This document shows positions 5,303 to 16,794 of a stretch of DNA of 64,000 bases, piece by piece. The stretch is taken from assembly GCA_963720755.1 (NCBI GenBank), contig CAVRGP010000011.1, positions 768,001-832,000 of the forward strand, in the 5' to 3' direction. Source of the stretch: an uncultured Chloroflexia bacterium (GTDB lineage Bacteria > Chloroflexota > Limnocylindria > Limnocylindrales > CSP1-4). The notes below the pieces were generated by a model. The model searched no databases. It was not told where the DNA came from and was given only the letters and a program-made list of their open reading frames with translations. The translations under genes and the position numbers were made by a program. Every line of letters begins with the position of its first letter. Position 1 is the first letter of the stretch.

Positions 5303-5554
5303 ATGCCGCTGTACCTCGACACGCACGACCATGTCCCTGGCCTGACCGGTGAGGCCGTCGCCCAGGCGCATGCCGCGGACCTGGCGGTCCAGGGCAAGTA
5401 CGACGTCAAGTACCTGCGCTACTGGTACGACGAGGCGACCGGCAAGGTCTTCTGCCTCGCCGAAGCGCCAAGTCCAGAAGCAGCGGAAGCCGTCCACCGG
5501 GAGGCCCACGGCCTGCTCGCCGACTCGATCGTGGAGGTCAAAGAGGGAGCGTAG
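5303..5554 (+). CDS. DUF4242 / SCO4226-like nickel-binding protein
   Basis: MPLYLDTH...AHAADL...YWYDE..GKVFCL..AP......VHREAHGL signature; SD AGGAG. Confidence 0.88.
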   Translation: MPLYLDTHDHVPGLTGEAVAQAHAADLAVQGKYDVKYLRYWYDEATGKVFCLAEAPSPEAAEAVHREAHGLLADSIVEVKEGA

Positions 5555-8303
5555 CCAGCGCCTCGTTCGGGGTCATCTGGCGGCCCTCGCGCCTGGCAGC
5601 CTCGAACCGCTCGGTCCCAAGGCGAGCCTCGAGGTTAGCCAGCTGCTGGTCATGCGCGGCGGCGGTCCGGGGCGGGACGATCGCCCGGATGGACTCCCGG
5701 AGTGACGTGGCGGCGCCATCGAGTCGGGCGGCGGCCTCCGGATCCTCGGTCGCGACCGCCCCGGCCAGGCTCTCCATCGCGCTGGCGAGGCCGGGCATGT
5801 CCCCGAGCTCCTGGCGGATCGCCAGGCTCTGCCGGAACAGCCCACGTGCGCGAGGCCCATCCCCATCGGCCAGTGCCAACTCGGCAAGCTGGGTCAGCAC
5901 GCGCGCGACGCCCCGTCGGTCGCCGAGCTCCTCGAGGATGGCCAGGGCTTCGATGTGGAGTGTCCGGGATCGCTCAAGCTGACCGGCTCGGTGGGCGATC
6001 CGCGCGAACGCATCCAGAGCGAACGCCTCCGTCCAGCGATCCCCCAGGCGCCGGATGGAGGCGAGGATCTCCTCCTCGAGCGATTGGGTGGCGGCCAGGT
6101 CGCCCTCCCGAGCCGCGACATCGGCAAGGTTGATGGATCCGAAGGCCGCGCCGCGCACGTCGCCGAGCTCCTTCGAGATCGAGATCGCCTCCTCGTAGAG
6201 TTCGCGGGCCCGCGCATTGTCGCCGAGCTGGATCGAGGTGTTCGCCAGGTTGTTCGCCGCGTAGGCCACGCCCTGTGGATCGCCGATCTGCCGCTGGAGC
6301 GCCAGGCTTTCGCTCTGGAGTTCCGCGGCGGCCCGGAGATCACCCTGCATGAACGCCAGATTGGCGGCGCCGGTCAGGGCATCGGCTCGCAGCGCGGACG
6401 TCTCCTCGCCGACAGCGTCCAGCATCCGATCCAGCCAGGCGCGCCCCTCGGAGAGGTGGCCACGGATCTCCCAGTACCGCCACAGGCCGGCTGCGATCCG
6501 CAGACCCGCCCGGGCCTCGCCGGGTTGATCGAGGCACCATTCGAGGGCGGCTCGAACGTCTTCGTGCTCGTCGTCGAGACGACGGAGCCAATCGATCGGT
6601 TCGGGACCGTGGAAAAAGGCAGGCGATGCCTTGTCGACAAGGGCGAGGAAGAGGTCGCGGTGACGCCGCAGCGTCGAATCGGCCTCGTCCGCCTCGACGA
6701 GCCGGCTGCGGGCGTACTCCCGGACGGTCTCGAGCAGCCGGAAATGGGCCTCCGACGAGGTCGGATCGGTGAACACCAGGGACTTCTCGACCAGCCGTCC
6801 GAGGAGGTCCAGGATGTCCATCGCGTCGACCGGGTCTCCCGCGCAGACTGACTCGGCTGCTTCGAGTGACGCTCCACTCGCGAACACGGACAGGCGTCGG
6901 AGCACCGCTCGCTCCGGCTCGGTCAACAGGTCGTAGCTCCAGTCGATCGTCGCGCGCAACGTCTGATGCCGGGCGACCGACGTTCGACTCCCGCCGGTCA
7001 GGAGCCGGAACCGATCGTCGAGGCGGGACGCGATCTGTTCGACCGGGAGCGCCCTGACGCGGGCCGCCGCGAGTTCGATGGCGAGCGGGATGCCGTCGAG
7101 GCGGCGGCACAGCTGCGCGACCGACCGGGCATTCTGGTCGGTCAATCCGAACGACGGCTGGACCGCCTGCGCGCGCTCCACGAACAGCTGACAGGCATCG
7201 ATCGATGCGAGGTCGCGTGCGCTGATGCTCGCGTCGACGCCGGGCGTCGAGAGCGAGGCGATCGGCAGGATCGCCTCGCCGGGCACGCCAAGCGCCTCCC
7301 GGCTGGTGACGACGATGCGAACCGTGGAGCAGACCTGGACGAGGTTCTCGGCAAGCTCGGCGGCCGCCGTGAGGACGGGGTCGCAGTCGTCGAGGACGAG
7401 GAGGAGTCGCTTGCCTTTGAGTTGATCGACGATCGTGGACAGCAGCGACCGCCCGGCCGGATCGGGCAGACCGATCGCACTCACCACCGAGGGCAGCAGG
7501 AAGCTCGGATCGCTGAGATTGCCGCACTCGATGATCCAGGTCCCGTCGTCGAATCGTTCGAGCAGCGTCCTGGCCAGGCGCCGTCCGATCCGGGTCTTGC
7601 CCACGCCACCCGGACCGGTCAGCGTCAGCAACGACGACTGGTCGAGCATCCGGGTCGCCTGCTCGATCTCACGGTCGCGACCGACGAAGCTCGTGACCTC
7701 GAGCTTGAGGTTGTTCCTCGGCGCATCGCCCGTCCTGGGCGGTGGGAAGTCGCGGGCCAGCCCTGGCCCGGAGACCTGATACAGGCGCTGGGCAGGCCCG
7801 TCGAGCGAGCGCAGGCTGTGCGCTCCCAGGTCGACCGTCCCCAGCGGTGGCCGAAGGTCCTCGGCGACCAAGTCCCGGGTGGTCTGCGAGATCAGGATCT
7901 GGCCGCCGTGACCGGCCGAGCAGATCCTGGCGGCCCGGTGGACGTCCAGTCCGATATAGCCCTCGGTTGCGTTGCGCGGCTCCCCGGTATGGATCCCCAT
8001 CCGGTCACGCACGACGGCGTCGCCGGGCCAGGGGTGGGCCGCGAGGGCCAGCTGCGCGTCGACCGCCGCCTGGACGGCCTCTCGCGCGCTCGCGAAGACG
8101 AAATAGAGCCCATCGCCGGCCGAGCCGCGCTCGAATGCGCCATGCCGGGCGAATGCCTCGCGGATCAACCGATTGTGGTCGGCCAGCACCTCCGGATACC
8201 GGTCGCCGAGCGACTGGAGCAACGCCGTCGAGCCCTCGATGTCGGTGAAGACCATCGTGACGGTCCCGGCCGGAAGCCCCGGCGCCTGTGAATCGATGGA
8301 CAA
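5538..8303 (-). CDS. Class III adenylate/guanylate cyclase - STAND-like ATPase - TPR protein
   Basis: FTDIEGST and GDG cyclase motifs; LTGPGGVGKT Walker A, LLVLDDC, LDGIPLAIELAAAR; C-terminal TPR-like repeats; TTG start chosen after GAGGAG. Confidence 0.88.
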   Translation of the reverse strand: MSIDSQAPGLPAGTVTMVFTDIEGSTALLQSLGDRYPEVLADHNRLIREAFARHGAFERGSAGDGLYFVFASAREAVQAAVDAQLALAAHPWPGDAVVRDRMGIHTGEPRNATEGYIGLDVHRAARICSAGHGGQILISQTTRDLVAEDLRPPLGTVDLGAHSLRSLDGPAQRLYQVSGPGLARDFPPPRTGDAPRNNLKLEVTSFVGRDREIEQATRMLDQSSLLTLTGPGGVGKTRIGRRLARTLLERFDDGTWIIECGNLSDPSFLLPSVVSAIGLPDPAGRSLLSTIVDQLKGKRLLLVLDDCDPVLTAAAELAENLVQVCSTVRIVVTSREALGVPGEAILPIASLSTPGVDASISARDLASIDACQLFVERAQAVQPSFGLTDQNARSVAQLCRRLDGIPLAIELAAARVRALPVEQIASRLDDRFRLLTGGSRTSVARHQTLRATIDWSYDLLTEPERAVLRRLSVFASGASLEAAESVCAGDPVDAMDILDLLGRLVEKSLVFTDPTSSEAHFRLLETVREYARSRLVEADEADSTLRRHRDLFLALVDKASPAFFHGPEPIDWLRRLDDEHEDVRAALEWCLDQPGEARAGLRIAAGLWRYWEIRGHLSEGRAWLDRMLDAVGEETSALRADALTGAANLAFMQGDLRAAAELQSESLALQRQIGDPQGVAYAANNLANTSIQLGDNARARELYEEAISISKELGDVRGAAFGSINLADVAAREGDLAATQSLEEEILASIRRLGDRWTEAFALDAFARIAHRAGQLERSRTLHIEALAILEELGDRRGVARVLTQLAELALADGDGPRARGLFRQSLAIRQELGDMPGLASAMESLAGAVATEDPEAAARLDGAATSLRESIRAIVPPRTAAAHDQQLANLEARLGTERFEAARREGRQMTPNEALATLPL

Positions 8304-8438
8304 CGATCGGCTCCTCTGTCGACTCGGACCCAGAAGACTACGCGGAACGCCGATGGTACGGCGTCTCCGACCCGTTGCCACGCATCATCGACGAGGGGAG
8401 CCGATCGTCAGGCCCGGCCCGGCTGCCGAGAGGACCCG

Positions 8439-9268
8439 TCAGCTGGGCTTTGTCGAGGCAGCTCGTGAGCGGGCGGTCGAACTGGCGGAAGGAGGTGTCA
8501 GCCCGCAATCCGGGGTCGTGCAGAGTTCCAGACCCAGCTCGGTCAGGCCCTCGGCGAGGGGCGTGAATCCGAGGTTGCCGGCGAGGCTTCGCGAGGTGAT
8601 CCCGGCGGGCTCTCCTCGGACCAGCACGACGCTGCCGGAGTCGCCACCACCGACCTGGAGTCGCGAGGCGATCAGGCACGGGAAGTAGGAGCCGTCCTGC
8701 GCGGCATCCTGCAGGTAGGAGCCCTTCTCGAGGACCGTCCCGGTGCGGTAGATGCCGCGTCCGTCCATCTCGATCGGATCCCCGACGGCGACGTCGGTAC
8801 AGGCGAGCGGCTGGCTGTCCGGCGCGAGGATCCGGTAGCCGCCGACCCCGAGGTCGATCTCGTTGAGGTGGCCCCACGGGATCCGGTCGGGCGCGACGAT
8901 GAGGTAGTTCATGTCCGACGCCTGACAGGTGTGGTCCGGATAGGCGCAGGTGGCGTCCTGTGCCGTCGGGCCGAAGATGCCCTGGACGGTCCCGTCGGGC
9001 GACGTCGCGGTCGTGCCCATGCCAGCACAATGCGGCGACGACGTGAGCACGATGGTGTCACCGAGCCGCGCATAGACGCCGGCTGAGCAGTAGCCAGGGA
9101 TCCACTGGCCGGCCAGGACCGGAGGGTCGTAGACGGTGTCGTACGGTGCGGCGTCGTGATGGCACGCACGACCGTGAAGGTTCCGAGCCCGAGCGCGAGT
9201 CCGGCCAGGACGACGATGACCAGGCGGACGGGACGGATGCGGATCCGGGCTCGAGTCGTGGGCACCAT
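8439..9268 (-). CDS. Exported trypsin-like (S1) serine protease, apparent 1-nt frameshift near 9150
   Basis: Hydrophobic N-terminus in the frame starting 9268; protease frame has LTSSPHC (His), ASDMNY (Asp), GGDSGS (Ser). Confidence 0.65.
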
Positions 9269-9339
9269 GGCCCAACCGTCGCATCGCGGTTCGTCGGCGC
9301 AACACCCTCAAGGTCCTGGGACCTCGGGTCGGTCCGCGG

Positions 9340-9984
9340 TCAACGGCGGAGCATCGTCAGCACCGCCAGCACCCGCCGGTTCAGGTCCGGAGACGGCTCG
9401 AGGTCGAGCTTCTGGAACACGACGGCCGAGGCGGCCTCCACCGTGCGCTCGCTGATCCCGAGTTCACGGGCGATGCCCGCGTTCGACCGGCCCTCGGCCA
9501 TCAGGGCGAGAATCTCGCGTTCGCGGCTCGTGAGTGACTCGAGTGGCGAGTCGGGCCGCCTCCCGCGCATGAGTTGGGCCACGATGGTCGGGTCGATCAC
9601 GCACTCGCCCTCGGTGACCCGGCGCAGGGCATCCACGAGCACGGCGATGTTCGAGACCCGCTCCTTGAGCAGGTACCCGAGTCCGCCGGGCTGGTCGGCG
9701 AGCAGGCGCTGCGCATAGCGCGGCTCCACGTACTGGCTGAGCAGCACGACGGCGGTTGACGGGTGCTCGTCGCGGATCCGCCGCGCGGCGACCAGGCCCT
9801 CATCACTGTGCGTGGGCGGCATCCGGATGTCGACGATCGCGACGTCGGGCTGCTGGCGGACGACGAGCGTCAGTAGCTCATCGGCGTCGCCCGCCTCGCC
9901 CACGACTTCGACGCCGGCATCAGCGAGCAAGCGCGCCAGCCCGGACCGGACCAGCATCACGTCGTCGGCGATGACTACTCGCAT
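9340..9984 (-). CDS. NarL/LuxR-family response regulator
   Basis: IADD, VDIRMPP (phospho-Asp), GYLLK; C-terminal LTSREREILALMAEGRSNAGIA HTH. Confidence 0.95.
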   Translation of the reverse strand: MRVVIADDVMLVRSGLARLLADAGVEVVGEAGDADELLTLVVRQQPDVAIVDIRMPPTHSDEGLVAARRIRDEHPSTAVVLLSQYVEPRYAQRLLADQPGGLGYLLKERVSNIAVLVDALRRVTEGECVIDPTIVAQLMRGRRPDSPLESLTSREREILALMAEGRSNAGIARELGISERTVEAASAVVFQKLDLEPSPDLNRRVLAVLTMLRR

Positions 9985-11699
9985 GGCATCTCCGCAGAGA
10001 GAAGGACGCCATCCTCGATGGACCCGACGACGAAGCGGCCGCCGACGGCACCGACCCTGTCGGCCAGATCAGTGAGGTCAGTCTGTTCCATGGCCGGGCA
10101 TCCGAGCAACCGCAGGCGGAAGTGCGCGGTGCCGCCATCCACGGTCACCACGATGCTGGCCGACGGAGAGCCCGGAGCGCGGCGTGCATGCGCTAACACG
10201 GTCGCAACAACGGCATATGCGGCCAGGGCGACATCGCGCTGAAGATCGAGCTGGGGAACATCGAACGTAACTGGCACCTCGGACGCCCGGGCCAGGTCTT
10301 CCAGGGCCGCGGTAAGGCCATGGGTCGCGAGCGTGGCAGGAAAGATCCCGTGCCCAAGCTCACGGAGGTGGGCAAGTGCCTCCCGAACGGCCGCTTCGGC
10401 CCGGCTCAGGTGCTCGTCTCCTGATATCAGGCGGGCGCGGGCAAGACTGAGCTGGAACGAGGCGCTGACCAAACGCTGCTGGGCGCCGTCGTGCAGATCG
10501 CGTTCGATACGCTGCCGTTCGGCGTCAGACGCCTCGACGATCCGGCGCTGGGAACTGCGAACATCGGCGAGGCGCGCCCTGCTCACGGCTTCAAGGCGAA
10601 GGTTCTGGATCGCCAACATGGTGGCTGGGGTGAGCGACGCCGCGACCTCAACGGGGTCGTCGCCCGAGGCGACGCCCAGACGGAGCGCCGGGCCGGAAGC
10701 GTCCGAGATCACGACGCCCCGAGCCACGTCGTGCGCCGGTTCGATCTCGACGCCGAACACGTCAACCCATCGGCCGTCGCCTGGAACCGCGAACTGGACC
10801 TCGCGGGCGTGGCCGCCAGCCCGACGATGCCGAGGCAGGCGCGCGCCGGCGAGGTCGTCGACTAGTTCCCGCACCTCCGTCCGAACCTGGCGCGCAGTGA
10901 TTCCCGCGGCGAGGGGTGCGAACCCGATCAGAAGGGCCGCGGCCACGCTCGGGAGCAGATCAGCGATGCGCGACGGAGCCTCCGTCCAGGTAGTCGCGTG
11001 CCTGATCCAGGGTAGGGCGAGGATCACGACGGCGAGAATTGCCGCCCGCGGGACCATGCTGGAGCGGCGATACGGACCCGGCCGGATCAGCCCGAGCACG
11101 GCGATGACCCCGGCTGCGCTCGTGAATGTCGTGGCAAGCACGTACGCTGCATGTCCCGAGAGCAGGCCGTTGGCCAGTGGCTCGACCCCACTACACGTCC
11201 GGCTGCATCCTGGATCGGTGAGGGGGTTGTACCCGGCCGCCTGCACGAGAACCGCGGCGGCTGCGAACCCATAGATCGCGACGAGCGGGGCGCCGGTGCT
11301 CGTACCCGGCGACCAGCGCAACCCGACGTGCGCGGCACCGGCGAGGGCCATCGGTGCGACGGCGAGCGCATACGCCCGCGCGTCGGCGGATGGCGTTGTC
11401 CATCCGGCCCACGTGGGCACGAGCAAACCGACGGTCGCGACGGCGAGTCCGACCGCTACGGCCGGCCGGTCGCTGCTGGAGATCCAGGCAGCCCCGACGA
11501 TCCCTAGACTCGCAACGAAGGCGATCGCGATCAACCAGGCTGGGAGGGCCAGCTCGAATGGGGATGCCCGATATTCGGGTATCGATACCCCCACGGTCAG
11601 CAGCGCGACACCGCTCGACACCAACGCCGCCACCAGTCCGACTGCACCACGGGGTCGGATCGCCAGCGACGTGATCGACACGCGGGCGCGCATGGTCAT
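9975..11699 (-). CDS. Membrane HisKA_3-type sensor kinase with intact His box but degenerate ATP-binding domain
   Basis: Multiple TM helices; ERQRIERDLHDGAQQRL; N, G1 and G2 boxes replaced (ATVLAH, LLGCP, TDLTDL); stop overlaps regulator start; start approximate. Confidence 0.85.
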   Translation of the reverse strand: MTMRARVSITSLAIRPRGAVGLVAALVSSGVALLTVGVSIPEYRASPFELALPAWLIAIAFVASLGIVGAAWISSSDRPAVAVGLAVATVGLLVPTWAGWTTPSADARAYALAVAPMALAGAAHVGLRWSPGTSTGAPLVAIYGFAAAAVLVQAAGYNPLTDPGCSRTCSGVEPLANGLLSGHAAYVLATTFTSAAGVIAVLGLIRPGPYRRSSMVPRAAILAVVILALPWIRHATTWTEAPSRIADLLPSVAAALLIGFAPLAAGITARQVRTEVRELVDDLAGARLPRHRRAGGHAREVQFAVPGDGRWVDVFGVEIEPAHDVARGVVISDASGPALRLGVASGDDPVEVAASLTPATMLAIQNLRLEAVSRARLADVRSSQRRIVEASDAERQRIERDLHDGAQQRLVSASFQLSLARARLISGDEHLSRAEAAVREALAHLRELGHGIFPATLATHGLTAALEDLARASEVPVTFDVPQLDLQRDVALAAYAVVATVLAHARRAPGSPSASIVVTVDGGTAHFRLRLLGCPAMEQTDLTDLADRVGAVGGRFVVGSIEDGVLLSAEMPCE

Positions 11700-11831
11700 G
11701 CGTGGCATTGTGCGACGCATTCGTCCGGTTGATACTCGTGTTTCCCGAAAGGCGAGCCGTGTCAGCCCGCTTCGAGCGGCCACCGTCGAGCGGTACAACC
11801 TGCACATTCAGCCGCGATGTGAGGACCGATC

Positions 11832-13394
11832 ATGAACGGGCAGCGAGTCGGCAGGTTCATTTCTCTCGCCCTCGGTGCGGGGCTGATCGCCGGGTGCGCC
11901 ACCACTCCGCAACCGCAACCAGCGCAGGACAAGGCGGGAACGCAAACGCTCGTCCTGAAGCTTGGCGCCGTCGACTCGATCGCGATCAACGGCCTCTCCT
12001 TTGGCCAGGCAGCCTTCATCGAGGACCTCGAGACGGTGTCCGGCGGACTGGTCAAGGCTGACGTCATCACCAGCTTTGGCGACCAGGCGCCTGATGCGGA
12101 GTCCCAGTTGGTCAGGGCGATCGCTTCCGGTGACATCGACGGCGGTTGGCCGTCGACCCGAGCGTTCGCGAACGCCGGGATCACCGGCCTCGAGGCCGTC
12201 GAGGCTCCGCTGACGATCACGAACTACGCTGCCAGCAAGGCACTGGTGTCCGGGCCGGTCGCGACCGATCTCCTCGATCAGCTGAATGGCACGGGAGTCG
12301 TTGGTCTTGGGTTGGCCGTCGGTCCGCTCCGCCGGCCATTCGCGGCACAGGCGGCGCTGGTGGAGCCGGCAGATTGGAAGGGCGCGACGTTTCGTTCGTT
12401 CAACTCGCCGGTGCAGACCGAGGTGATCCGCGCTCTCGGCGCCACCCCGGTCATCGCCGCCAACGATTGGGTCGATCAGATGAATGCTGGGACGCTCCGC
12501 GGGGCCGAATTCGACATCGAACAGTATTTCGAGAATGGTGCGACGCAAGCCCCGTACGTGACCGCGAATGTGGTCCTCTGGCCAAAGGTGTTCGTGCTCG
12601 CTCTCAGCCAGAAGCGCTTTGACGCCATGTCGGATCAGCAGCGGGCCTGGGTCCAGCAGGCGGCCGAGGCGGCGACCAAGGCATCGGTCGATGCGACCTA
12701 TGACGAGTCGGCGGCGGCCGCCGAACTTTGCGCGCGAGGCGTCCATTTTGTCGAGGCAAACTCGAACCAGCTTGCGCAGCTCCGCGACGCAGTCAGCCCC
12801 GTCATCAAGAAGCTTGCAGCCGATCCATTGAGCGGGCCGATCCTGACGGAGATCCAGGCCGTCGCCGCCCGGTATCCACAGGTTGAGGAACCGACCGTGC
12901 CCCCGTCCTGCCACGAGACTGCCGCGCCCAGCTCAAGTCCGGGTATTCCTGAGGACGTCGCATCGCTGCCGGACGGCGTCTACCGTGAAGAGGTGACGGT
13001 GGCGGACGCTCAGGGTCCCAAGTTCAAGGATCCAGGCCTCCGTGGCACCTGGACACTCACGGTCGATCACGGCACCTTCGCGCTCAGTTGTCGGTTCATC
13101 GACGCGCCCGACACGGATTGTGGACAGAGCCATGCGGATGGGGCGACGGTGGAGGTTGGCCGGCTCCGCGGCACCGGGAACACGGTCTACTTCGTCGGCG
13201 ACCTGGACATGCTGCGAGAGACGACCGGATGTCTGCTCCCGATCTCGATGACGCTGGATGGGCACTGCGTCGTGATCCCGCCGTACTGGTTCACCTGGTC
13301 ACTCGACGGTGACCAACTGACGTTCAAGGCCGTGGGGGGCGAGTTCGTCAACCTGCAGCAATTCTCGGTCAGGGCTTGGACCAGGATCAGCTAG
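11832..13394 (+). CDS. dctP: TRAP DctP-like substrate-binding lipoprotein with extra C-terminal domain
   Basis: Lipobox LIAG-C; WKGATFR, ALGATPV, LSQKRFDAMSDQQRAWV DctP-like motifs; extension of roughly 150 aa. Confidence 0.75.
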   Translation: MNGQRVGRFISLALGAGLIAGCATTPQPQPAQDKAGTQTLVLKLGAVDSIAINGLSFGQAAFIEDLETVSGGLVKADVITSFGDQAPDAESQLVRAIASGDIDGGWPSTRAFANAGITGLEAVEAPLTITNYAASKALVSGPVATDLLDQLNGTGVVGLGLAVGPLRRPFAAQAALVEPADWKGATFRSFNSPVQTEVIRALGATPVIAANDWVDQMNAGTLRGAEFDIEQYFENGATQAPYVTANVVLWPKVFVLALSQKRFDAMSDQQRAWVQQAAEAATKASVDATYDESAAAAELCARGVHFVEANSNQLAQLRDAVSPVIKKLAADPLSGPILTEIQAVAARYPQVEEPTVPPSCHETAAPSSSPGIPEDVASLPDGVYREEVTVADAQGPKFKDPGLRGTWTLTVDHGTFALSCRFIDAPDTDCGQSHADGATVEVGRLRGTGNTVYFVGDLDMLRETTGCLLPISMTLDGHCVVIPPYWFTWSLDGDQLTFKAVGGEFVNLQQFSVRAWTRIS

Positions 13395-14998
13395 GCTGGG
13401 ATCCGTGCGGTGAGTGTCGTACCCACTCCGTAGGGGCTCTCGACGCGGAGCCGACCACCGTACGCAGCCAGCCGATCGGCCAGGCCCTGCAGGCCGAACC
13501 CTGAGGGCTGGGCACCGCCGACCCCGTCGTCGGAGATGGCGATCACAAGGTCGGCACGATCGCGACGCAGGTCGATCGAGATGTGGCTCGCGTGAGCATG
13601 CTTGATCGCATTGGCCATCGCCTCAGAGCAAACGAAGAAGAGCGCCGTCTCACGCTCGACGTCCGCCCGTGCATCGGCTGCCAGCCCGACCGATACCGGG
13701 AGCGGGCACCGCGCGGCAAGCCCGGCGATGGCGTCGACCAGCCCACCGTTGCCGAGGATCGCCGGTGGGAGCCCGCTGATCAGGGCGAGGATCTCGTCGG
13801 CCGAAGCTTCGAGCTCACGGCCCGCGATATCGAGCGGCCCTCGAGCTTCCGCCCCACTCAGATCGCCATCGATGCGCCGGATCTCAGCGCCCGCCACCTT
13901 GATGACCTGCACGACCTCATCGCGCAGTCGTGCCGCGGTCGCGGCCCGCTGTCGATCGGTCGCCACCAGCAGCCGCCCGCGGGCCGCTTCGAGGTTCGCG
14001 AGCTGTAATTCCTGCGCCGCCTGCCAGCGCTCATGGAGCGCGGTGAGGCGGACCGCCTCGATCACGGCCGCGACGATCGTCGGATCCTGCATCGCCGACA
14101 TTCCTCGGTGGATGACCGACGCCAATCGCCCATTACCATCAGCCACGTCGATGATCAACGATTTGCCATCGTTCGCCTCCGTATCCACGCCGGCGGAGTC
14201 CCGATACCGGCCGGCAGTCGGGTCCCATACGAGGATCCTGAGATCGGGATCGCCGAGGGTCTCAGCGAGAAGCGCGGCGAGGCCCTCGATCCCCGCGCCA
14301 CTCTCGTCACCAACGAGGTGGTCCGCAAGCACGGCTCGCTCTCGAGTCACGGTCCAGCTGGCGATCGGAAACCCCACGGCGATCGCGACGAGGACAAGCT
14401 CAAGGCCGAGCAACCATGTCGATGCGTCGTAGTCGCGTGGATCGGTCGTTTCCGTCAACCACGACGTGAGGAGCACGAGGGCGACGCCGGCCGCAGCAAC
14501 GGCCGGAAACCATATAGTCGCGCGCGCCCAACGTCGGTCGATCCACGATGTAGCGGCGACCGCCGCCATGAGCGCGGCCAGCGCGGGGATGGGCGGGATC
14601 ACGCGGATGGCCAGGTAGAGTGCGACGACGAGGAGGGTCGAGGCGACCAGGATCCAGTCGCGAGGTCCGCCCGGACGACCAGTCGGAAACAGCGTCAGGG
14701 CAACCACCAGGATCGCCAGGTAGGCGAGTCGCGCCGCGGGGGCGGGGGACCCGAGTAGCCAGGCGAGCCCGACCGCAGCGAACCACACGCGGCACCGCCA
14801 CGGTCCGGGCGCGAGGATGGCCCCTACGACGAACGCCAGTCCAACGGTCAGGTCCGCGATCGTCGCCGCAGGACCGAGGCTACCGGGGGAGAGATCGGCG
14901 CGAGCCGCCAGGAGCGCCAGGACGGCCGTCATCAGGCCGAACGTCGCCCATGCCATCGGCCGCTGTTTTCCGCGCGTCGCGCCAGCAATGCCCGCCAT
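13391..14998 (-). CDS. Membrane sensor kinase-like protein with intact HATPase domain but lacking the phospho-acceptor His
   Basis: Multiple TM helices; EAMANAIKH, ISDDGVGG, GFGLQGLADRL, GTT; H-box region reads QRAATAARLRDE; start uncertain (14956-15025). Confidence 0.82.
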   Translation of the reverse strand: MAGIAGATRGKQRPMAWATFGLMTAVLALLAARADLSPGSLGPAATIADLTVGLAFVVGAILAPGPWRCRVWFAAVGLAWLLGSPAPAARLAYLAILVVALTLFPTGRPGGPRDWILVASTLLVVALYLAIRVIPPIPALAALMAAVAATSWIDRRWARATIWFPAVAAAGVALVLLTSWLTETTDPRDYDASTWLLGLELVLVAIAVGFPIASWTVTRERAVLADHLVGDESGAGIEGLAALLAETLGDPDLRILVWDPTAGRYRDSAGVDTEANDGKSLIIDVADGNGRLASVIHRGMSAMQDPTIVAAVIEAVRLTALHERWQAAQELQLANLEAARGRLLVATDRQRAATAARLRDEVVQVIKVAGAEIRRIDGDLSGAEARGPLDIAGRELEASADEILALISGLPPAILGNGGLVDAIAGLAARCPLPVSVGLAADARADVERETALFFVCSEAMANAIKHAHASHISIDLRRDRADLVIAISDDGVGGAQPSGFGLQGLADRLAAYGGRLRVESPYGVGTTLTARIPA

Positions 14999-15171
14999 GC
15001 GCACGTCGATAGTCGATGTCCGCATGGCTGTCAAGGCCTCGTGCGCGAGCGACACCGTGCTACCCCGGCTCCGGACCGAGCCAACGCCGTTGGAGCAGGG
15101 GCCCGAGCTTCCTACCTTGGATCCGAGGCCCGGCCGTTGCGTGTGCCGGGCAGGCCGATGGAGGTGGGAAC

Positions 15172-16794
15172 ATGTACGTTCGATCGGGAAGGACACCGGT
15201 GGCCGTCCTGGCGGCGTGGCTCCTGGCGACGACGGCGGTGCCTGGTGCGGTGGCCGCCGCCAGCCCGCTGTGCGTCGGCGGACCGGGCTGCTATACATCG
15301 GTGCAGGCGGCCGCCGATGCGGCGCACGACGGTGATGTGATCAAGATCAACCCCGGAACCTATGCCGGCGGCGTGACCGTCACGGCCAGCGTGCGGCTCA
15401 TCGGCGCCGGCGCGGCCCGGTCCCGGATCAAGGGTGGCGGGCCGGTCCTGACCATCGGGACGTACGGTGCAGATACGGAGCCGACGGTCGTCATCGAGGG
15501 GCTCTCGATCACGGGCGGCGTGACCCGCACGAGCCCGCAGTCATCCGAATGGGTCGGCGAGTCGGGCGTCGTCGCTCTCGGCGGCGGCATCGAGATCCCG
15601 CCCAACGCGGACTACTCCGGTGGCGCAACCGTCACCATCAGGGACAGCCTGATTACCGGCAACCGCGTCGCCCCGTTGACCACGGCGCCCGTCGGGCCGC
15701 CGTGCCCCGCTGGGGCCTGTCCATTCGCTCTGGCCTCGGGTGGAGGCATCGACTCCTGGGGCACGCTGACCCTGGTTCGTACCACGGTGAGCAACAACCT
15801 CGTGGGCGCCGCTTCGGGACTTTCGGACCTCGCCAGCGACGCAGAGGGCGCCGGCATCCGAAGCTGGATCGCACCGCTCACGATCCGGAACAGCCGAATC
15901 ACCGGGAACCGGGCGAGCGCCGTTGCCCCGAATGGACGGTTTGCCGACAGCGGCGGGATCTTCGTCAACGCCGGCTCATTCGAGATGGATCACAGCTCGG
16001 TGAGTGGTAATAGCGTCGTGCTGGAAGCAGCCTTGCCCGACACCGTCGACCTGGGAGCTCACGCCGGCGGCATCCATCTTGCCGACGACGTCGACCACGC
16101 GACGATCAACGACAGCGTCATCGCCGGGAACGCCGTGAGGATGACGAATAGCGTCGGCTCCGCGGACGCGTTCTCGGGCGGCCTTCACGTCGACTGGGGC
16201 GTGCAGCCGTTCACGATGACCGACAGCGTCATCGCCTTCAACCGCGTGTCCGTCAGGACGATTGGTGGATCGACCGGGGACGCCTCCGGCGACTCAGGCG
16301 CGGGCGAAATGCACGGGTCCTTCGACGGCACGCGCTTCGCGGGCAACACCGTGGAAATCAGGTCCGTCGCGGGCAATGCGTACGCTCTCGCCGGCGTGTC
16401 GATCTTCACCGGCGTCATCTCGCACGGCACGGTGGCTGGCAACAGGGTCACGGCCTCGAGCCACAGCGGAGAGGCGTGGATCGGTGGCGCCGCGCTCATG
16501 GCTGACGATGGCGGCATCACCCTGCGCGAGACGACGGTGCGCAACAACACCGCTCACGTGAGCGGTCACGACGCCGCCACGGCACAAGGCGGCGGGATCT
16601 ACGACTCGCCGATCCCCGACGGACCGCCGGGCGGTCCGCTGACGCTCGACCACAGCACTGTGACAGGCAACGTCCTCACCGGCTCGAGCGGCGCCACCCT
16701 CCAGGGCGGCGGGATCTACGCCACGGACGTGCCAGTGACGATCACCAGCAGCGTCGTGCGGCACAACGTTCCCGATCAGTGCTTCGGGTGCTGA
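15172..16794 (+). CDS. Secreted right-handed parallel beta-helix (pectin-lyase-like) protein
   Basis: SD GGAGGT; signal peptide; SVQAAADAAHDGDVIKINPGTY start; repeated GGGI and xITGN motifs; C-terminal NVPDQCFGC. Confidence 0.78.
   Translation: MYVRSGRTPVAVLAAWLLATTAVPGAVAAASPLCVGGPGCYTSVQAAADAAHDGDVIKINPGTYAGGVTVTASVRLIGAGAARSRIKGGGPVLTIGTYGADTEPTVVIEGLSITGGVTRTSPQSSEWVGESGVVALGGGIEIPPNADYSGGATVTIRDSLITGNRVAPLTTAPVGPPCPAGACPFALASGGGIDSWGTLTLVRTTVSNNLVGAASGLSDLASDAEGAGIRSWIAPLTIRNSRITGNRASAVAPNGRFADSGGIFVNAGSFEMDHSSVSGNSVVLEAALPDTVDLGAHAGGIHLADDVDHATINDSVIAGNAVRMTNSVGSADAFSGGLHVDWGVQPFTMTDSVIAFNRVSVRTIGGSTGDASGDSGAGEMHGSFDGTRFAGNTVEIRSVAGNAYALAGVSIFTGVISHGTVAGNRVTASSHSGEAWIGGAALMADDGGITLRETTVRNNTAHVSGHDAATAQGGGIYDSPIPDGPPGGPLTLDHSTVTGNVLTGSSGATLQGGGIYATDVPVTITSSVVRHNVPDQCFGC

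Follow-up and report, generated by a model that had tools for sequence, protein, structure and literature searches.

The locus described here raises the question of whether two membrane histidine kinases, one of which has kept the phospho-acceptor His and the other the ATP site, act as a single enzyme. Histidine kinases are textbook homodimers, and to our knowledge few cases of heterodimer function are known. In the window, a stretch of 64,000 nucleotides from an uncultured Chloroflexia bacterium, the two kinase genes (K1 and K2) form separate transcription units that flank an oppositely oriented binding-protein gene, and a response regulator gene adjoins K1 (Table 1). The K1 stop and the regulator start share 10 nt, and the convergent stops of K2 and the binding-protein gene overlap by 4 nt.

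Table 1. Features of the two-kinase locus, in positions of the window.
Feature	Position	Strand	Details
Response regulator gene	9340..9984	-	NarL/LuxR-type, 214 aa; Pfam Response_reg and GerE
K1 gene	9975..11708	-	Membrane kinase, 577 aa from likely start ATG 11708
K1 pseudo-ATPase domain	9978..10298	-	
K1 H-box	10470..10520	-	ERQRIERDLHDGAQQRL; His codon CAC 10491-10493
K1 outside loop (predicted)	11142..11234	-	31 aa, CxxxC; hydropathy topology
Bipartite upstream element, K1 copy	11732..11764	-	23 nt ahead of K1 start
DctP-family binding lipoprotein gene	11832..13394	+	520 aa; Pfam DctP, NCBIfam TRAP_S1
DctP domain of binding lipoprotein	~12003-12869	+	
C-terminal extension of binding lipoprotein	~12870-13391	+	Conserved; outside the region aligned with PDB TRAP binding proteins
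K2 gene	13391..15025	-	Membrane kinase paralogue, 544 aa from likely start ATG 15025
K2 ATP-site motifs	13472..13627	-	N-box 13598-13627, G1 13517-13534, G2 13472-13501
K2 pseudo-H-box	13901..13951	-	QRAATAARLRDEVVQVI; Arg codon CGC 13922-13924
Bipartite upstream element, K2 copy	15052..15083	-	26 nt ahead of K2 start

The motifs and codons that a sequence-only reading of this DNA had given for both kinases all proved exact on re-reading. In K1 (longest ORF 9975-11807(-); database gene call P0005) the phospho-acceptor is His439, accompanied by Asp at +1 and Gln at +5, the phosphatase motif positions, and ATVLAHARRA, RLLGCP, and QTDLTDLADR stand where the N, G1, and G2 boxes would be expected, the Glu and Asn of the N-box and both the G1 and G2 motifs having been lost. 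This pseudo-ATPase domain carries a conserved tail (DxADRVGAxGGxL) and a conserved C-terminal Pro-Cys. In K2 (longest ORF 13391-15298(-); database gene call P0125) the His position is occupied by Arg459, and the ATP-site motifs are intact (N-box SEAMANAIKH, G1 SDDGVG, G2 GFGLQGLADR). Pfam searches returned HisKA_3 as the sole match on K1 (E 1.3e-10), with no HATPase_c, and HATPase_c as the sole above-cut-off match on K2 (E 1.2e-10), with no HisKA_3. A PDB profile search matched DesK to K1 over the H-box only, with no ATPase domain found, and to K2 over the ATPase domain only, which aligned with those of DesK, DosT, DevS, and VraS. Of the two features that define a canonical HisKA_3 kinase, K1 possesses the His and lacks the N/G1/G2 ATPase, K2 possesses the ATPase and lacks the His, and neither alone has both. 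A further feature of canonical HisKA_3 systems, an adjoining NarL/LuxR-type regulator with a phosphorylatable Asp (D52), is present; its receiver residues D7, D8, D52, S83, and K106 are all in place, and its orthologues at 18 syntenic loci share 67-96% identity.

K1 and K2 are collinear paralogues (27% identity across 344 residues), each of which aligned end to end with a DHp-CA profile made from canonical relatives. As in split kinases, the His-bearing and ATP-using functions reside on separate, co-occurring polypeptides; no domain is missing, both kinases having retained their domains in degenerate form. Hydropathy predicted ~8 membrane helices in each, in agreement with the multi-TM regions claimed earlier.

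The reciprocal defects were conserved across both families. In the K1 family, His, Asp+1, and Gln+5 were present in every one of 120 protein clusters, and all four ATP-site motifs were absent from 119 of them. The K2 family, which comprises at least 150 clusters at 50% identity, lacked the His in 134 of 145 representatives (R 86, Q 12, H 11, other or gap 36), retained all four ATP-site motifs in 139 of 142, and conserved a pseudo-H-box motif, DRQRxxxAARLRDEVVxPI; no invariant His besides that of the N-box was found elsewhere in the K2 alignment. Because it is conserved family-wide, this pattern is far beyond chance. Values of dN/dS were below 1 in all domains of both kinases: 0.13-0.24 for the K1 DHp, 0.38-0.87 for the K1 pseudo-ATPase, 0.13-0.42 for the K2 ATPase, and 0.16-0.36 for the K2 pseudo-DHp. 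Random decay, which the sequence-only reading had named as grounds for giving up its proposal, is not what was found, each defect being conserved under purifying selection. That the genes are decaying pseudogenes or assembly errors is scarcely credible: frameshifted MAG copies do exist (L033, L038, L043, G289, and G299), yet the frames in the window are open, the same defects recur in hundreds of clusters, Kribbella isolate genomes included, and the dN/dS values point the same way. Decay as an account of the K1/K2 defects is contradicted by the family-wide conservation data.

The pseudo-ATPase is the least constrained domain of K1, a weak constraint (dN/dS up to 0.87) that sits uneasily with the heteromer proposed below. 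It also bears on the idea that K1 binds ATP non-canonically and autophosphorylates alone, the motif loss being misleading. Some pseudoenzymes do relocate catalytic residues (PMC10211241, excerpt), and the C-terminal domain was deleted in none of the 120 K1 clusters, but with all four motifs missing in all except one cluster, such low constraint on the domain, and no PDB ATPase domain matched by the K1 profile, we regard this idea as highly improbable.

Paired occurrence of His-only and ATPase-only forms, which the same reading had proposed as a check, was observed both among genomes and among loci. K1 and K2 were both present in 9 of the 301 genomes of the window's family, neither was present in 292, and none carried one alone, although these are related genomes and not independent samples. 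In all 9 genomes the two orthologues lay on the same contig, ~3.3 kb apart. Among 24 His-less, ATPase-intact ORFs, 20 had, no more than 6 kb away, a partner that carries the His and whose ATPase is dead or weakened; for two of the remaining four, partners were located by hand (L022, with L006, and L040), the partner in L033 is frameshifted, and in L029 the contig ends. Conversely, none of 24 dead-ATPase ORFs was solitary where the contig permitted checking. The gene order K2, DctP-type binding protein, K1, NarL-type regulator recurred at 19 loci in two phyla, from Chloroflexota-labeled MAGs and from Actinomycetota, including cultured Kribbella. The K1 and K2 subtrees were congruent. Since the two kinases are inherited together in many soil bacteria, with the binding protein and one regulator, they most likely work solely as a team.

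Control of transcription may add to this pairing. A bipartite element ahead of K1 and K2 has only these 2 matches in the whole 3.0 Mb genome, a count to be read with the pattern having been derived post hoc from the alignment, from the sites then found. It is conserved ahead of K1 in L027, L028, and L043, and ahead of K2 in L025, L026, L028, L038, and L043. Judged by sequence, the element would suggest shared control of the two kinases, which we count in favor of pairing. Placement of K1 and K2 in separate transcription units is an observation that goes against a heteromer.

Strict mutual dependence is not universal across the family because some K2s keep the His and three K1s keep most ATP-site motifs. 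The K1 orthologues of L036, L037, and L042 retain the N-box Asn, G1, and GxG and branch outside the dead-ATPase K1 clade, and their K2 partners are already His-less, which fits the K1 ATPase having become dispensable once K2 supplied the activity. A His is retained at the K2 position in 11 of the 145 representatives and also in L065. The description of the pair as obligate does not hold universally, given these K1s with a largely intact ATPase and these K2s with a His.

Between the kinases lies a conserved DctP-type gene that the sequence-only reading had not mentioned. Its product has a signal peptide with a LIAGC lipobox and a Pfam DctP domain (PF03480; E 1.5e-23; score 84 bits, cut-off 23.4 bits), PDB TRAP binding proteins aligned with residues 35-346 only, and it is the sole DctP homologue in the window's genome. 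Of its family's 689 matches, the 120 listed were all ~494-550 aa. DctP proteins work with DctQ/DctM membrane subunits, but the TRAP permease DctM (PF06808) gave no match in the window's genome (93.6% complete), control genomes being matched, and no permease gene lay inside the cassette at any of the 19 loci. As for a domain on which the binding protein could dock, hydropathy showed short outside loops in both kinases; the sole sizeable loop of K1 is the 31-aa one, in which C168 and C172 of the CxxxC are invariant in the alignment. The earlier suggestion of a two-sensor AND gate found no support in these short loops, the lipoprotein being the likelier sensor; it is likely the outside sensor for K1 and K2, and its ligand is probably a carboxylate. 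The apparent lack in K1 and K2, as judged by hydropathy, of an outside ligand-binding domain such as those of solved systems (PMC8050422, excerpt) is an observation against the heteromer proposal.

Taken together, these results make it rather probable that the four genes form a conserved module in which the ATPase of K2 phosphorylates the His of K1 within a heteromeric kinase that takes its signal input from the lipoprotein. K1 and K2 would form a heteromer, in the simplest case through a mixed DHp four-helix bundle, possibly as a higher-order complex; His439 of K1 would be phosphorylated in trans by the K2 ATPase domain, and the phosphoryl group would pass to Asp52 of the regulator, for which K1 without K2 input would act as phosphatase. 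The lipoprotein, probably with a carboxylate bound outside the cell, would act on the short-looped membrane domains. The motif states, their family-wide conservation, strict co-occurrence, synteny, purifying selection, and the orphan status of the binding protein were observed directly; we infer that K1 and K2 pair physically, how the phosphoryl group travels, what the binding protein does, and which class of ligand it takes.

A scheme without phosphoryl flow from K2 to K1 is unlikely, but deserves weighing. In it K1 would serve only as phosphatase or only in phosphotransfer, the regulator would receive its phosphoryl group from acetyl phosphate or from a different kinase, and K2, as a pseudokinase that binds nucleotide, would tune K1 allosterically, much as in the DivL/CckA pair. 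The Asp+1 and Gln+5 beside every K1 His agree with it, as do the other canonical HisKA_3 kinases of the window's genome. In ChrS, a kinase of the same type, Q191A is described as phosphatase-deficient, and a lab-evolved kinase without an ATPase domain acts via a non-cognate kinase, its own His being unneeded (PMC9491836, excerpt). However, a merely regulatory K2 would need no catalytic Glu, Asn, G1, and G2, which nearly all K2 representatives keep, the invariant His of K1 is not obviously required by a pure phosphatase, and decay of the K1 ATPase is confined to K2-carrying lineages. We consider it improbable that K2 instead phosphorylates a target other than K1, for example as a Ser/Thr kinase resembling the anti-sigma kinases, which share its fold, or acts directly on another protein, K1 being unrelated to the catalysis. 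K2 matched HATPase_c_2 weakly (E 8.4e-6, under the curated cut-off) and SpoIIAB faintly, which hints at this, but such matches accompany ordinary kinase ATPase domains, no STAS/anti-sigma partner was found among the neighbors scanned for families, K2 retains a constrained DHp-like hairpin, and the strict pairing with K1 would be left unexplained.

The arrangement proposed for K1 and K2 recalls classical experiments on EnvZ and NtrB, in which two mutants of one kinase, altered at the His and at the ATP site, reportedly complement each other intermolecularly: in the mixed dimer the His-less subunit, its ATPase being good, is reported to phosphorylate the subunit that has a good His and a dead ATPase. 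The mutants there were engineered from a single gene, whereas here the arrangement appears to have been fixed by nature in two diverged genes. In split kinases, as here, phospho-acceptor and ATP-using function lie on two polypeptides with one regulator; split kinases lack whole domains, as is reportedly true of Rv0600c/Rv0601c, while K1 and K2 are full-length, polytopic membrane proteins with all domains kept and one degenerate in each at the motif level. Examples are Rv0600c/Rv0601c/TcrA of M. tuberculosis (PMC3544749, excerpt), Hik36/Hik43 of Synechocystis (PMC7656254, excerpt), and CheA3/CheA4 of Rhodobacter sphaeroides, which become labeled when mixed but not singly (PMC3591291, excerpt).

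Our literature searches found no description of a HisKA_3 pair with reciprocal defects, in line with the earlier claim of no described case, which must be qualified by the full-length FasB/FasC heterodimer of another family. In group A Streptococcus, one locus encodes these two membrane kinase-like paralogues and one regulator, FasA; two-hybrid data support heterodimers and not homodimers, and the FasC kinase domain is dispensable and its His needed, the model being that the FasB kinase domain phosphorylates FasC in trans (PMC12675982, excerpt). The likeness to K1/K2 extends to paired membrane paralogues, one regulator, and one partner with a dispensable kinase domain, but, as far as the excerpted text goes, FasC is defective in function without its motifs having been lost throughout a family, and candidate His residues remain in FasB (PMC12675982). 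The Fas locus has no binding-protein gene, unlike the K1/K2 locus. FasA is a LytTR-type regulator in an AgrC-like system, unlike the NarL-type regulator and HisKA_3-type kinases described here. AbrC1/AbrC2/AbrC3 of Streptomyces coelicolor, an “atypical” system of actinobacteria, likewise combines two paralogous kinases with one regulator, but both kinases autophosphorylate their own His in vitro and show no reciprocal defects in the text available (PMC4428217, excerpt), and the paralogous kinases HrrS and ChrS form heterodimers by two-hybrid assay (PMC9491836). Among binding-protein-dependent kinases (LuxP/LuxQ, TorT/TorS, XylFII/LytS, and HptA/HptS), the binding-protein gene lies beside signaling genes and not a transporter, as at this locus, but LuxQ, TorS, LytS, and HptS have sizeable outside ligand-binding domains and K1 and K2 only short predicted loops; the DctP-family examples in the excerpted source have transporter partners only (PMC8050422). 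Split kinases and the FasB/FasC heterodimer being already known, K1/K2 is a further variation on the theme.

Tentatively, a bolder reading is possible, in which nature has fixed the pair as an obligate hetero-kinase of wide distribution. An ancient duplication would have been followed by loss of the His in one paralogue and then of ATP binding in the other, a ratchet of mutual dependence that left only the K1:K2 complex active; a TRAP binding protein, recruited and lacking a transporter, would govern from outside how this complex assembles or which conformation it takes. Such a complex, if real, would be the bacterial equivalent of receptor heterodimers that respond to a ligand and contain a dead partner. 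On this reading the four genes seem to be passed as a unit between Chloroflexota and Actinomycetota. Source names call the K1 and K2 orthologues simply “signal transduction histidine kinase” and describe the binding protein as a “C4-dicarboxylate transport” protein, names on which these findings bear, and a TRAP binding protein as dedicated sensor may be a new role. Evolution appears to have fixed complementation between a His-less and an ATPase-dead kinase, a classic laboratory experiment, in a large protein family of soil bacteria in which intermediate stages are still extant (L036, L037, and L042) and for which Kribbella provides cultured hosts. In this family, trans-phosphorylation and the asymmetry of dimers can be studied in a natural system, the theory by which bifunctional kinases respond like switches when split (PMC3591291) can be put to the test, and duplication followed by reciprocal degeneration has a worked example.

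The cassette examined here comprises a NarL-type regulator, a membrane kinase with an intact HisKA_3 H-box and a degenerate ATPase domain (K1), a DctP-type binding protein, and a paralogue of K1 which lacks the phospho-acceptor His and retains an intact ATPase (K2). The sequence-only reading had proposed that K1 and K2 constitute an obligate heterodimeric split kinase, and when the window sequence was re-read each of the motifs and codons it listed was found in place. Pfam recognized HisKA_3 alone in K1 and HATPase_c alone in K2, while profile searches of the PDB with each family matched solved DesK structures exclusively over the H-box for K1 and exclusively over the ATPase domain for K2. As paralogues, the two kinases align collinearly from the last membrane helix through to the C-terminus (344 residues, 27% identity), and hydropathy analysis gave each approximately 8 membrane helices joined by short loops. 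The K2 and binding-protein genes are convergent, with stop codons sharing 4 nt (13391-13394). ORF coordinates showed the two genes overlapping by 4 to 62 nt in 14 of the 15 orthologous loci with intact genes, the exception being retrieved locus L036 (a 6-nt gap); this convergent overlap leaves no space for separate terminators.

Coordinates of the cassette genes, their key codons and adjoining features in the window
Feature	Position	Strand	Description
Cyclase/STAND protein gene	5538-8381	-	947 aa; adenylate/guanylate cyclase domain, STAND-type NTPase and TPR repeats
290-aa ORF	8439-9311	-	just downstream of the regulator
Regulator	9340-9984	-	NarL/LuxR type; all receiver residues present (Pfam and residue reading)
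K1 ORF	9975-11807	-	likely start ATG 11708; 577 aa, as in the protein-database gene call
K1 His439	10491-10493	-	CAC codon, read in the window
Bipartite element, K1 copy	11732-11764		precedes the K1 gene
DctP-type binding-protein gene	11832-13394	+	opposite strand to both kinases
K2 ORF	13391-15298	-	likely start ATG 15025; 544 aa, as in the protein-database gene call
K2 Arg459	13922-13924	-	CGC codon, read in the window
Bipartite element, K2 copy	15052-15083		precedes the K2 gene
Beta-helix gene	15173-16794	+	secreted right-handed beta-helix protein; divergent from K2; likely start ATG 15173 after GGAGG, with signal peptide; listed ORF begins at 15016

In order to score the defects across both families, members were aligned to a profile of the domain holding the phospho-acceptor His (DHp) and the ATPase domain (CA) built from 73 canonical relatives, and G1 was counted with a rule in which DxGxG begins at the first Asp. 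The His, Asp+1 and Gln+5 were retained in 120 of 120 K1-family clusters, with the N-box Glu, N-box Asn, G1 and G2 all absent from 119 of them. For K2, the best 150 full-length matches came from a profile search across 1.84 billion representatives, and 146 of them could be aligned; the His position held Arg in 86, Gln in 12, His in 11 and another residue or a gap in 36 (145 assessable), and all four ATP-site motifs were retained in 139 of 142 representatives. By these counts, K2 conserves its catalytic site and leaves the His position free to change, and K1 does the opposite. Rough pairwise dN/dS values agree with this pattern (K1 DHp, 0.13-0.24; K1 pseudo-ATPase, 0.38-0.87; K2 ATPase, 0.13-0.42; K2 pseudo-DHp, 0.16-0.36). 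In a collection of 5.8 billion proteins, all K1 relatives carried HisKA_3 only and close K2 relatives HATPase_c only. The degenerate K1 ATPase domain has a conserved tail, DxADRVGAxGGxL, together with a C-terminal Pro-Cys. Chance, decay and sequencing error were ruled out as sources of the defects by family-wide conservation and dN/dS values below 1, and relocation of the His within K2 was likewise ruled out, the N-box His being the sole invariant His in the K2 alignment.

The sequence-only reading had also asked whether His-only and ATPase-only forms co-occur, and across 301 genomes of the window's family, searched without seeding, they do: orthologues of K1 (E <= 1e-50) were found in 8 genomes and of K2 in 9, the 8 lying within the 9, and in the ninth (G299, 62% complete) K1 adjoins K2, broken into frames. 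The tally is therefore 9 genomes with both, none with one alone and 292 with neither. The 9 represent 6 of the family's 49 genera, and within the window's own genus the other 19 genomes sampled all lack the pair. This is how a unit acquired and discarded in one piece is distributed, in related genomes that are not independent samples. One genome, G251, carries two copies of the pair with identical scores (G251:C3 32006-37025 and G251:C10 1114287-1119306), which may stem from a genuine duplication or have been doubled in assembly.

A wider scan with the K2 alignment, at one genome per species, returned 80 loci. In the first 19 (L025-L043), K2 was followed by a convergent DctP-type gene in every case and then by K1 and the regulator in 18, the contig of L029 stopping inside the DctP gene. 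Hosts were MAGs labeled Chloroflexia or Limnocylindria, as well as Actinomycetota (Kribbella antiqua, K. kalugense, K. capetownensis, Jiangellaceae, Propionibacteriaceae and Ilumatobacteraceae). All loci and the window's genome together gave 231 distinct DHp-CA ORFs, of which 159 were classed as intact in both His and ATPase, 24 as lacking the His with the ATPase intact, 24 as His-bearing with a dead ATPase, 3 as lacking the His with an ATPase that matches in part, and 21 as His-bearing with an ATPase of that kind, several of the last being artefacts of an over-strict rule which scored G1 from the second Asp of DDGxG (G1 is intact, for example, in L037, L042 and L170). For 20 of the 24 His-less ORFs, a partner that bears the His and has a dead or weakened ATPase lies no more than 6 kb away; L022 is partnered by L006 on the same contig, the partner of L040 is present in the locus but fell outside the coverage filter of the classification, that of L033 is frameshifted, and the contig of L029 ends. 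Reciprocally, 17 of the 24 dead-ATPase ORFs have a His-less partner and L006 pairs with L022; the partner of L043 is broken across three frames, that of L065 is K2-like yet His-bearing, and the contigs of L105, L106, L108 and L109 are too short to show one. Cassette genes are split into several frames in the MAG assemblies at L033, L038, L043, G289:C3 and G299:C8, which may reflect assembly indel errors or real pseudogenes. A K1-seeded metagenome scan listed mostly canonical kinases, which share the H-box pattern, and among the matches listed those of the K1 type were L105-L109 and L115. Equal longest-contig sizes across the lists of K1, K2 and binding-protein relatives suggest many more shared contigs; because matching length is indirect evidence, these cases were excluded from the co-occurrence counts.

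The invariant His and phosphatase motif of K1, the conserved acceptor-less catalytic site of K2 and their strict co-inheritance lead us to favor, with some reserve, a mechanism in which K1 and K2 would form a heteromer, the K2 ATPase would phosphorylate K1 in trans, the phosphoryl group would pass from K1 to the regulator, and K1 alone would act as a phosphatase. Mutants of a kinase lacking the His and mutants of its ATP site classically complement one another, and if the favored mechanism holds, the K1/K2 arrangement is by analogy a natural form of that complementation. The main rival, in which K2 is a nucleotide-binding regulator, K1 a phosphatase and the phosphoryl group comes from elsewhere, gives a poorer account of the conserved catalytic residues of K2 and of the K1 His, and we consider it unlikely.

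How such a pair may have arisen was approached with a quick maximum-likelihood tree built from 82 DHp-CA rows. K2 proteins of the window's cassette type (type A) formed a clade with support of 100, the dead-ATPase K1s formed another with support of 97, and the K1 and K2 subtrees matched group for group. The K1 orthologues of L036, L037 and L042 retain the N-box Asn, DxGxG and GxG, their K2 partners are already His-less, and they were placed outside the dead-ATPase K1 clade with support of 99. Because these K1s keep ATP motifs beside His-less partners and branch outside, the data fit an order in which K2 lost its His first and the K1 ATPase decayed later, an order possible only if the K2 ATPase could already serve K1. 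Comparison of the window with five Kribbella loci (L034, L035, L039-L041) gave 77-80% identity for the regulator, about 51% for the binding protein and 34-42% for the kinases; regulator identity so far above that of the kinases points to strong constraint on this protein and probably to passage of the cassette between phyla.

Two further cassette types were seen. Type B (G011, L054, L065 and L115; in G011:C6 at about 91410-97300, L022 and L006) has the layout of type A, namely His-less kinase, DctP-like gene, dead-ATPase kinase and regulator, with identities of 24-30% for the DctP-like gene and 59-64% for the regulator. One copy belongs to a genome from the same genus as the window, and the K2-like member of L065 keeps its His (KELHLGAARR). 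Type C, in Kineosporia (L061 6743-11717 and L064 7166-11735), has a dead-ATPase kinase directly followed by a kinase with Asp for His and an intact ATPase and then by a regulator, the binding protein being absent. In the 82-row tree the type B K2-like proteins joined the type A K2 clade (support 95), and type C stood apart in the free quick tree. AU tests rejected neither a single clade of all His-less or K2-like kinases (p 0.54) nor one of all K1-like kinases (p 0.68), for groups named after the tree was seen and an alignment that included the trait's own columns; for these reasons we make no claim either way on independent origins of types A, B and C. Separately, His-less members with Arg or Ser at the His position (L101 4153-6267, L103 1768-3864 and L097 6-1514) occur in another HisKA_3 clade, within tandem arrays of three or four kinases that are canonical apart from them; scored with the over-strict G1 rule, these members have partly altered ATP-site motifs.

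The product of the gene lying between the two kinase genes is a lipoprotein with a Cys-lipobox signal peptide, a domain of the DctP (TRAP binding protein) family and approximately 175 further residues with no assigned fold. It has 689 relatives; among the best 120 of them identity is never below 51% and lengths are about 494-550 aa, a size indicating that the C-terminal extension is kept. In the window's genome (93.6% complete) this protein is the sole DctP homologue, and a search for a DctM permease gave no match there and did give matches in control genomes; taken together, these results make it unlikely that the binding protein feeds a transporter. The Arg of its FRSFNSPV motif aligns with an Arg of a TRAP binding protein that is presumably the carboxylate-binding one, which hints at an organic acid as the ligand class. 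By hydropathy and alignment, K1 has a single sizeable outside loop, of 31 aa with two invariant Cys, a candidate contact for the binding protein. Genes for binding proteins that stimulate sensor kinases adjoin signaling genes, according to a review of binding proteins in signaling (PMC8050422).

A bipartite element occurs twice genome-wide, in both cases before a kinase gene, and is conserved in the closest loci, which suggests that the transcription units of K1 and K2 are controlled in common; since the pattern was derived from the very two sites it then finds, the count shows only that the element is no common motif. Beyond the cassette, the secreted beta-helix protein is the sole conserved neighbor, kept beside K2 in the closest MAG loci only (L025, L026, L028, L038 and L043), and its gene could be a target of the cassette; the Kribbella flanks differ from those of the window. 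A look-up of sequencing runs listed 4 DNA runs, all from a single soil study, and no RNA data set. The cyclase/STAND protein has a relative in L057 and is not conserved with the cassette. The 290-aa ORF had no Pfam match and no counterpart in related loci and may not be a gene.

Earlier papers already describe split kinases and one full-length heterodimeric pair. The FasB/FasC model (PMC12675982) parallels the proposed trans-phosphorylation, the CheA3/CheA4 split kinase (PMC3591291) parallels the proposed mechanism, and two-hybrid assays detected heterodimers between two paralogous kinases, HrrS and ChrS (PMC9491836). Both kinases of the known two-kinase actinobacterial system AbrC1/AbrC2 are self-sufficient (PMC4428217). 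In the main texts of a literature lying mostly outside subscription journals, our searches turned up neither a HisKA_3 pair whose motif-level defects are reciprocal nor a DctP-type protein linked with one. The central biochemical claim is one that we infer, for a system that is widespread and conserved, has living intermediates and cultured hosts, and is directly testable.
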